Source: an uncultured Actinomycetota bacterium | GTDB taxonomy: Bacteria; Actinomycetota; Actinomycetes; CAVWCF01 | Direction of reading: 5' to 3' | Length of the DNA stretch: 64,000 nucleotides | NCBI GenBank assembly: GCA_963753435.1 | Contig: CAVWCF010000001.1 | Coordinates: 320,001-384,000, forward strand | Shown: positions 49,782 to 64,000 of the stretch, in pieces | Position numbering within the stretch: position 1 is the stretch's first letter | Layout: every line of letters starts with the position of its first letter | The notes under the pieces: model-generated | Told to the model about the DNA's origin: nothing | What the model saw: the letters and a program-made list of their open reading frames with translations, nothing else | Databases searched by the model: none | Program-made: the position numbers and the translations under genes

Positions 49782-49855
49782 GCCCCGGTACTCCAACTGG
49801 TAGAGAGGGCGGTCTCAAACACCGCACAGTGTGGGTTCGAATCCCACCCGGGGTA
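49782..49855 (+). tRNA. tRNA-Leu(CAA), short variable loop, CCA not encoded
   Basis: Acceptor GCCCCGG/CCGGGGT, anticodon arm GCGGT-CTCAAAC-ACCGC, T arm GTGGG-TTCGAAT-CCCAC, discriminator A. Confidence 0.93.
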
Positions 49856-62838: not shown

Positions 62839-63231
62839 GGGCACACTCCTTGTAGTGGACGGCCGGACAGCGAATCGAAGTACCAGGACTCGGCCTAGCA
62901 GCGCATGGTCGGCTTCGACGCAGTAGCCGGTGATGTCGGCGCGGCTGACGATCAACGTCACGTTCTCGGACCCGTTGCCGATCTCGCCTTGGATGTCCGC
63001 AAGCGTCATCCCGGTGAAGTCCCCTCGCTGCGCGACAGACCAGCTCTCTGCGCCGGTGGCGGCAGCCTTCAAGTCGTTCTGGAGTGCCGCGCGCCAGCCG
63101 TTCTCCCGCTGGTTCAGGAAGGCGGGGATCGCGATGGCCGCCAGGATCCCGATGATGATCATGACGACGAGGAGCTCGATGAGGGTGAACCCGCCATCGT
63201 CCCCGCCGGCGGGTGGCTGCAGCCGTCGCAT
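62835..63231 (-). CDS. Second PilA-like pilin; frameshift near 62893
   Basis: DDGG|FTLIELLVVMIIIGILAAIAIP; true C-terminus ESWYFDSLSGRPLQGVCP* lies in another frame and parallels pilA1 ENWNYQSNVGTPQDGACP*. Confidence 0.85.
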
Positions 63232-63238
63232 GCCGCGT

Positions 63239-63267
63239 TCATCGGCACTAATACGCCCCGCACTTGA
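63239..63267 (-). promoter_or_regulatory. FliA/WhiG-type promoter of pilA2 (probably leaderless)
   Basis: Minus strand TCAAG-N16-GCCGATGA, 7 nt before ATG 63231. Confidence 0.65.
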
Positions 63268-63279
63268 CTGCGACAAATG

Positions 63280-63313
63280 AGTGAGGGGCGACCCTTTCGG
63301 GCCGCCCCTCACT
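63280..63313 (-). terminator. Intrinsic terminator of the major pilin gene
   Basis: Minus strand AGTGAGGGGCGGCCC-GAAA-GGGTCGCCCCTCACT followed by CATTTGT. Confidence 0.85.
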
Positions 63314-63331
63314 TCAGGGTGTATCAGGCGA

Positions 63332-63736
63332 TCACGGGCAAGCGCCGTCCTGCGGCGTACCCACGTTGCTCTGGTAGTTCCAGTTCTCGCCAGTCAACTG
63401 GGCGTGCGTGCCGCCGAGGCAGTACGAGTTGCCGTCAGCAGCCACCGTCACCGCGACGGTCACGTCAGCGGACTGGTTGAAGCCCTCGGCGGTCAGGTCG
63501 GCCGCCACCATGCCGGTGTAGGAACCGTCGTTCTGGGTCGCGAAGGACTCCGCGGCGACCGCGGCGTTCTTCAGGTCGGACTCGACCGTCGCACGCCAGC
63601 CGTTCTCCCGCTGACGCAGGAAGGTCGGGATGGCGATGGCGGCCAGAATGCCGATGATGATCATGACAACGAGCAGCTCGATCAGCGTGAAACCGCCGTC
63701 GCGCTCCTCCATGGACTTGCGAATCCGAGCGAGCAT
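63332..63736 (-). CDS. pilA: Major type IVa pilin
   Basis: MLARIRKSMEERDGG|FTLIELLVVMIIIGILAAIAIP with E5; C-terminal Cys pair; strong AGGGAGG RBS; own terminator. Confidence 0.93.
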   Translation of the reverse strand: MLARIRKSMEERDGGFTLIELLVVMIIIGILAAIAIPTFLRQRENGWRATVESDLKNAAVAAESFATQNDGSYTGMVAADLTAEGFNQSADVTVAVTVAADGNSYCLGGTHAQLTGENWNYQSNVGTPQDGACP

Positions 63737-63797
63737 TGAAGCCCCTCCCTAGGGATGTGGTCTGAGCTCGCGGCAGGTCGGTCGGTGGCCTTGCGGC

Positions 63798-63877
63798 CGG
63801 CCGAGGTAGCTGGGCTGGCTCGGGGAGCCCCCTGGCTTTGCGCCCCCGCCTCGCGACGGGTTCGCCCGTTCTGGCCG
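63798..63877 (-). ncRNA. c-di-GMP-I (GEMM) riboswitch in the pilA leader
   Basis: Minus strand CGGCCAGA-AC-GGGCGAA-CCCGTC-GCGA-GGCGGG-GGCGC-AAAGCCAGGG-GGCT-CCCCG-AGCC-AG-CCCAGCT-ACC-TCGGCCG: P1, P2 with GNRA loop, GCAAAGC junction, P3, and equivalents of G20, A47, C92 and the C44-G83 pair. Confidence 0.85.
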
Positions 63878-63897
63878 TTCACTCACTGTCGGGATCA

Positions 63898-63925
63898 ACA
63901 TCGGGCCGGATACGGCCCGCCTTAA
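63898..63925 (-). promoter_or_regulatory. FliA/WhiG-type promoter of pilA1
   Basis: Minus strand TTAAG-N15-CCCGATGT, about 20 nt upstream of the riboswitch. Confidence 0.55.
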
Positions 63926-63977
63926 GGGATCTTGATCACACTTAGATAACGAATGATTGGTTGCCGGAACAGCAGAC

Positions 63978-64000
63978 GGGGCCGCCCCTGGGGCGGCCCC
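63978..64000 (-). terminator. Hairpin at window edge, probably terminator of the upstream gene
   Basis: GGGGCCGCCC-CTG-GGGCGGCCCC. Confidence 0.55.

Follow-up and report, generated by a model that had tools for sequence, protein, structure and literature searches.

The pilA1 locus

We have studied the leader of the type IV pilin gene pilA1, which lies on the minus strand at the end of the window (the whole stretch of 64,000 nucleotides that was analyzed). Outside the window lie pilB, whose product carries an MshEN domain, pilT and pilC; these are followed by a hairpin, which likely separates pilB-pilT-pilC from pilA1, and then by the leader and pilA1 itself (Table 1). Its position, its own promoter and the hairpin downstream indicate that pilA1 likely encodes the major pilin. 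Beyond that hairpin lie a second pilin gene, minor pilin genes, pilD and genes that we take from their general sequence features to be pilM/N/O/P-like.

Between 59250 and 62900 of the window the second pilin and minor pilin genes are heavily frameshifted, in contrast to pilB/T/C/D/M/N/O/P and the aro genes, which are intact. The counterpart of this region is also broken in two genomes of the same family. Errors of the consensus sequence, in a region that varies among strains, are the likely cause, with decay as the alternative. Directly upstream of pilB, as in the two same-family genomes, are two genes (G000:C1:388843-390509; L002:8840-10510) that we presume to be small GTPase-like and DUF4388-like, possibly forming a pilus polarity module. 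The window also contains a tRNA gene at 49782-49855 (plus strand, 54.5 bits).

Table 1. Features of the pilA1 leader and its surroundings (window coordinates)
Feature	Position	Strand	Basis or remark
Strong hairpin after pilC (pilC stop just beyond the window)	63978..64000	-	z -3.2
WhiG (sigma-28)-type promoter, CTTAAG ... CCCGATGT (TTAA-N16-CCCGA)	63898..63926	-	motif; +1 predicted at 63890
P0 5' strand, UGAGU	63881..63885	-	folding; family covariation
c-di-GMP-I aptamer	63798..63877	-	RF01051 match; GCGA tetraloop
Aptamer positions (Vc2 numbering)	G20 63866, C44 63842, A47 63839, C59 63827, G79 63819, G83 63815, C92 63806	-	bases read
Unusual aptamer bases	G23 63863, G43 63843	-	bases read
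Short hairpin GGCC-GCAA-GGCC directly 3' of P1	63787..63798	-	weak in the pilA1 copy, z +0.64
Switch strand	63771..63785	-	ligand-free fold: predicted pairing with U94-G97, C18-G20 and the P1 5' strand
P0 3' strand, GCUCA	63763..63767	-	folding
Anti-SD TCCCT and ribosome-binding site AGGGAGGGG	63742..63755	-	sequence, folding
pilA1, 134-aa type IV pilin (PF07963)	63332..63736	-	profile match
Strong hairpin after pilA1	63282..63311	-	z -4.4
Second WhiG-type promoter, before the second pilin gene (ATG 63231, without riboswitch)	63241..63268	-	motif

A c-di-GMP-I aptamer in the leader

The initial annotation had placed a c-di-GMP-I riboswitch in the pilA1 leader, and all of its elements are found at the place given on the minus strand. 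The covariance search that it suggested, performed with Rfam cmscan on the 64-kb window, matched RF01051 at 63802-63876 (minus strand) with 45 bits against a gathering cut-off of 35 (E = 1.5e-5). This is the only copy in the whole genome (2.17 Mb, 98% complete). Folding stability of the aptamer or leader was no better than chance in two computations (z = -0.88 and -1.34); the evidence for the aptamer comes from the covariance model. The c-di-GMP-I-GGC variant (RF03167) was rejected; at 48.8 bits the match falls short of the cut-off of 59, and the model has G where the pilA1 RNA has A47.

The bases G20, A47 and C92, whose roles in ligand contact have been described (PMC6140456, PMC3764141), are all canonical. 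The bases of C44-G83 and of the receptor pairs C59-G79 and U60-A78 are all there, as are the conserved P2 bases C22, A25, G32, A35, G42 and G45, but A23 is replaced by G. By every sequence test except A23, the pilA1 aptamer is a member of RF01051. The identity of position 20, G or A, distinguishes c-di-GMP from cGAMP switches (PMC6140456), and the GEMM-Ib cGAMP class was set aside as position 20 is G, not A. With G20 intact, together with A47, C92 and C44-G83, c-di-GMP is the predicted ligand, as had been deduced earlier from this same base. We consider it very likely that the pilA1 leader RNA binds c-di-GMP and regulates.

In Vc2 the pairs C59-G79 and U60-A78 receive the GNRA loop (PMC3764141). 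The C44-G83 and GNRA loop/C59-G79 contacts would be expected to form in the pilA1 aptamer too. P3 had been described as short and without a tetraloop receptor; the 11-nt GAAA receptor is indeed absent, but nothing else is missing and the two receptor pairs are kept. P1 lies where it had been drawn, but probably in another register. In place of GA/UC pairing with a bulged 5' A, homology with Vc2 suggests G14-C93 and A13-U94 at the top, a bulged C95, and then five further pairs.

G23 and G43 are each found in one of 79 pilin leaders. A23 is listed as highly conserved (PMC3764141). Folding indicates that G23 is able to pair with C44 in competition with C44-G83, disruption of which abolishes binding in Vc2 (PMC11705072). 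The pilA1 aptamer also has the second-lowest score among the best RF01051 matches of 27 genomes. However, a pattern scan found G23 aptamers in 40 metagenome stretches, 31 of them distinct, and as 26 of the 31 share G43 the combination is a recurring natural form. Two other pilin leaders (L069 and L091) have A at position 20 with changes in nearby P2 bases, and are possible ligand variants.

The genome contains further candidate c-di-GMP RNAs. A c-di-GMP-II-GAG riboswitch (G000:C2:12785-12884, plus strand; L191:286-385; 61.9 bits, cut-off 40) lies directly 5' of a gene for a 533-aa protein with a signal-peptide-like start. A sub-threshold c-di-GMP-II match (G000:C1:44475-44556, plus strand; L190:276-357; 43.2 against 53.5 bits, E = 2e-7) adjoins the ribosome-binding site of a gene for a 248-aa secreted protein, the tail motif of which we take to be sortase-like. 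These matches suggest a small RNA regulon for surface proteins.

The predicted promoter and the c-di-GMP proteins

A WhiG-type promoter, an RsiG layer and a stem (P0) enclosing the aptamer had all been overlooked in the initial annotation. The genome encodes WhiG (282 bits by profile search) and a twin-motif RsiG with two E-x3-S-x2-R-x3-Q-x3-D motifs. RsiG is reported as confined to Actinomycetota, in agreement with the actinobacterial host proposed earlier. The pilA1 promoter TTAA-N16-CCCGA has two mismatches to the published WhiG2-RsiG consensus T(A/C)AA-N16-GCCGA, and fails the strict -35 rule given in the same source (PMC12871210). Of 78 homologous leaders, 77 have the promoter motif upstream, although the same motif was also used to set the leader start; the homologs mostly have CTCAAG-N15-xxCGA, with CTCAAG in 61 of the 78. 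Five of the 54 genome-wide WhiG-type matches fall within the 14-kb pilus cluster, where 0.17 would be expected, using a search pattern of our own that was shaped after these leaders had been seen. It is highly probable that pilA1 is transcribed from the predicted WhiG-type promoter. The predicted transcription start lies upstream of the aptamer, as the riboswitch assignment demands. A scan of 63000-64000 gave no sigma-70 promoter and no U-tailed terminator (0 sites), in line with the earlier statement that none lies between the aptamer and the ATG.

Control of type IV pili by WhiG has been published for Rubrobacter and Actinoplanes and predicted in other families (PMC8325347, PMC12871210); the word riboswitch occurs 0 times in the main texts of these two papers. 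Among cyclic-dinucleotide domains the genome gave four GGDEF, two EAL and two HD_5 matches, and no match to flagellin was found in it. Rough intervals around the GGDEF, HD-domain and rsiG genes were scanned and contained no WhiG-type motif. A GGDEF-EAL gene (G000:C1:543272-544508, minus strand) is split between its two domains by a frameshift.

Conservation of the link between aptamer and pilin

We examined 61 genomes, comprising the source genome, two of the same family and 58 of the same class. RF01051 was found in 27 and a pilin match in 41. An aptamer lies 37-93 nt before the pilin match in 23 of the 41 pilin-bearing genomes (24 of 41 aptamer copies), and a linked aptamer was not found in the other 18. 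Five genomes are flagged as unpublished (three linked, two unlinked), and without them the count is 20/36. RsiG is encoded in all 23 linked genomes and in 16 of the 18 unlinked ones, which led us to discard the riboswitch as a replacement for RsiG. WhiG is found in 21 of the 23 linked genomes, the two misses being 88% and 58% complete. The riboswitch thus appears to be added on top of the protein switch, rather than substituting for it.

A pattern of aptamer letters only matched 87 stretches in a species-level genome collection, a set that overlaps the 61 genomes and includes kin that are not independent. Eighty-six are labeled Actinomycetota and one, a short contig, Gemmatimonadota; the only cultured strain is Aquipuribacter hungaricus (L100). 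At the 80 loci examined, 78 of 82 matches precede a pilin motif, and the other four had just 7-86 nt of downstream sequence. Of the seven loci left over, six were included as pilin leaders in the set used later. The pilin-linked aptamers mostly end in CCTC, not CCGA. G20 is present in 77 of 79 leaders, and A47 and C92 in all 79, these two being fixed by the scan pattern. Judged by sequence, similar aptamer leaders are found repeatedly before the pilins of numerous Actinomycetes, most of them uncultured.

In five cases (L042/L043, L046/L047, L048/L049, L086/L087 and L114/L115) pilin genes lie in tandem and each has a separate riboswitch, the two copies being spaced by 700-840 nt. The titles under which L059, L061 and L117 are recorded (Bifidobacterium breve; Gemmatimonadota) seem to be wrong assignments; leaders of other actinobacterial MAGs match those of L059 and L061 almost exactly.

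The predicted expression platform: P0 and strand exchange

Of 80 leaders, 79 could be parsed. On folding these with P2 and P3 held fixed, P1 is outcompeted in 78 of the 79, by a median of 4.9 kcal/mol. In the pilA1 copy, folded at stepwise lengths, P1 dominates until about 63780 and is lost by 63771. Past about 63780 the switch strand is predicted to capture both P1 strands together with G20, favored by 7-10 kcal/mol. It had been proposed that the GGCC-GCAA-GGCC hairpin provides the alternative to P1. This hairpin does exist, but its overlap with P1 is a single base, and the predicted competitor is instead the switch strand. The TCCCT reported next to the ribosome-binding site is present (63755-63751, adjoining 63750-63742).

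The aptamer is enclosed by a further stem, P0, in which the 5' end pairs with a stretch immediately preceding the ribosome-binding region. A rule-based search detected this stem in 38 of 47 non-redundant leaders; the UGAGU/GCUCA P0 of pilA1 was missed by the rule but is visible in the fold. Cognate P0 strands pair better than swapped ones (p = 0.0002, with relatedness kept in by the swap), and compensatory changes from G-C to A-U occur in 4 of the 38. Pairs were counted without the MAFFT alignment, which misaligned the platform. Covariation was absent from corresponding swap tests of anti-SD/SD, P1-5'/switch, switch/SD, switch/coding start or P0-3'/SD. C92-G97 pairing beats shuffled sequences, but is invariant by design of the pattern. 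At codon 2, CTC is found in 35 of 47 aptamer leaders but also in 8 of 17 aptamer-less ones, and a role for this codon in the switch was dropped.

P0 is also clear in four of seven aptamer-less pilin leaders that were folded, chosen from 20 regions fetched. The loop of an older leader hairpin therefore appears either to have gained the aptamer and switch or to have lost them. These four leaders (L132, L134, L140 and L142) retain the GTCA start and a GAGCC/GGCTC-type hairpin, and the conservation of the hairpin sequence may point to a protein-binding or stability element.

Proposed mechanism and the sign of the switch

Our leading proposal, which we hold with rather less than full conviction and as one plausible account among several, is that the pilA1 leader comprises a class I aptamer behind a predicted WhiG promoter, acting as a co-transcriptional strand-exchange switch that raises pilin translation upon binding c-di-GMP. 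P1 would form first, and would dominate only until the transcript reaches the switch strand. As this strand is favored over P1, the ligand would have to bind within a short time. With ligand bound, P1 would be locked and the switch strand would stay unpaired within P0. The G-rich strand of most members would then pair with the anti-SD, opening the ribosome-binding site and so turning translation ON. Control is probably mainly translational.

The evidence for an ON switch comes chiefly from the family. Most members have a G-rich switch strand, which pairs better with its own anti-SD than with swapped ones (p = 0.005, n = 38; p = 0.02, n = 37; relatedness kept in), although no such covariation was seen with a cruder segmentation (p = 0.29). 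The switch/anti-SD duplex is more stable than the anti-SD/SD duplex by over 1 kcal/mol in 22 of 38 leaders. The ON pairing is a pseudoknot when P0 is closed, and is therefore invisible to ViennaRNA. In equilibrium nested folding there was no consistent change in access to the SD among 79 leaders (7 more open, 8 less), nor among 38 (1 up, 2 down). Both characterized pilus riboswitches that we compared, those of Geobacter pilM and the C. difficile class II element, are described as ON switches (PMC9262584, PMC11477304). Given this precedent and the family covariation, we modestly favor ON over OFF.

The same aptamer and strand exchange could instead turn translation OFF, if the locked P1 destabilizes P0 and the freed strands cover the SD and start codon. 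We judge this possible but the less probable reading; it is nevertheless a close rival of ON, especially for the pilA1 copy. There the switch strand is C-rich; its duplex with the anti-SD is worth about 0 kcal/mol and that with the SD -9.0, and the P0 3' strand pairs with the first codons at -8.9. Opening from SD to AUG costs 12 kcal/mol in the aptamer state compared with 10, the ribosome-binding site is 2-2.6 kcal/mol harder to open, and in two of the four lengths folded P0 falls from 0.94 to 0.01-0.32. Across the family the -20..+13 interval in the aptamer state opens less readily in 20 of 47 leaders and more readily in 6, and P0 is formed in 26 of 38 free but 14 of 38 bound. Yet these differences lie within folding error and vary with length; the -35..+13 interval of pilA1 moves in the opposite direction, and pairing in the TCCCT/RBS hairpin of pilA1 hardly differs between the two states. 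Moreover the family exhibits no covariation for switch/SD, switch/coding or P0-3'/coding pairing (p = 0.48-0.97). Family covariation leans ON, and folding of the pilA1 copy leans OFF.

Other explanations would take the decision away from translation, from the RNA altogether or from c-di-GMP. A switch acting on transcription or RNA lifetime, through a U-less hairpin, a Rho-dependent stop or nuclease access inside P0, would accord with a decision that looks co-transcriptional, with the strong pilC-end and pilA1-end hairpins that likewise lack clear U tails, with SD access that hardly alters in nested models, and with P0 in aptamer-less leaders, as expected of a stability element. We think it improbable. 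There is no U tract in 78 of 79 platforms (at most four T per 8 nt), and the hairpin after P1 is weak, with z below -1 in only 20 of 47 leaders and positive in the pilA1 copy. Also against this explanation, P0 cannot close until the transcript has passed the putative terminator, and so needs read-through. The G-rich character of the freed strand in most members is, moreover, unlike a Rho site. It is very unlikely that the pilA1 copy is weakened or vestigial, leaving WhiG-RsiG alone in control of the pilin. Such a loss might be read from G23 and G43, from the low score and from the 18 pilin-bearing genomes without a linked aptamer, but the ligand contacts and tertiary pairs are all kept, G23 recurs in the metagenome aptamers, and the alternative fold is retained despite sequence change. 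Finally, the fold and the pilus target are shared with the Geobacter pilM switch, the ligand of which is 3',3'-cGAMP. For pilA1 that ligand is extremely improbable on account of G20, and also of the cyclases: all four GGDEF domains have Asp at the site diagnostic for Hypr cyclases, where promiscuous Hypr enzymes have Ser or Thr, and no SMODS domain was found in the 98% complete genome.

Returning to the ON switch, at high c-di-GMP RsiG would hold WhiG and the promoter would be off; with the riboswitch on, the result would be an incoherent feed-forward loop. Pilin would be made at intermediate or rising c-di-GMP, and the MshEN-bearing PilB would perhaps be switched on then too. More tentatively, we suggest a pilin-dedicated c-di-GMP-I riboswitch subtype, inserted across Actinomycetes into an ancestral leader hairpin, in which an RBS-opening pseudoknot triggered by the ligand, a promoter turned off through RsiG-WhiG and an MshEN motor might form a three-layer band-pass or pulse circuit. 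If so, one messenger would set the transcription, translation and assembly of one fiber with opposite signs. An OFF switch would reinforce the RsiG shut-off of WhiG, giving a coherent loop with fast shut-off.

Relation to known systems

Accounts of c-di-GMP signaling in Actinomycetota have centered on proteins, RsiG-WhiG among them. With a riboswitch before the pilin in more than half of the pilin-bearing genomes sampled, an RNA layer would be added to this circuit, raising the question of whether RNA opposes or reinforces the anti-sigma switch. The terminator-less, P0-enclosed platform might also be usable as a c-di-GMP sensor for high-GC hosts. The aptamer class is known, as is riboswitch control of pili in other phyla; what appears to be new is the predicted platform and its wiring, with the pilin-specific subtype, the P0 nesting, the strand exchange and the co-occurrence counts given here. 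Our literature searches turned up no description of c-di-GMP riboswitches upstream of pilins in Actinomycetota, although Rfam hit lists or survey supplements may list such loci, and passages of a review consulted on their distribution (PMC7288161) contain nothing on them.

The pilA1 aptamer resembles the RF01051 family, with Vc2 of Vibrio cholerae and Cd1 of C. difficile, in its three-way junction, G20/A47/C92, C44-G83, the GNRA loop with its C59-G79 receptor and a P1 bulge at position 95, which is A in Vc2 and C in pilA1. It differs from them in its short P3 without the 11-nt receptor, in G23/G43 and in a longer P1, and further in its nesting within P0, its predicted strand-exchange platform, the lack of a U-tailed terminator, and a pilin target in Actinomycetota. 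The GEMM-Ib riboswitch of Geobacter metallireducens pilM, as described in PMC9262584, has the same fold before a pilus gene, with mutually exclusive aptamer and competing folds and a co-transcriptional window, but it senses cGAMP and uses an intrinsic terminator, where pilA1 has G20 and no U tract.

The C. difficile pilin precedent cited in the initial annotation is indeed a c-di-GMP riboswitch, but of class II rather than class I. Like that of pilA1 it is a c-di-GMP RNA before a type IV pilin operon (CD3513-03) in a monoderm; unlike it, the account in PMC11477304 gives a class II fold and a transcriptional ON switch, and describes no WhiG-RsiG layer. With the RsiG-(c-di-GMP)-WhiG control of pili reported for Rubrobacter and other Actinomycetota (PMC8325347, PMC12871210), the pilA1 locus shares WhiG-type promoters in the pilus cluster, WhiG and RsiG encoded in the genome, and the lack of a flagellin match. 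It differs from the Rubrobacter-type system of those papers in its twin-motif RsiG and in the RNA sensor that is predicted to be stacked behind the promoter.
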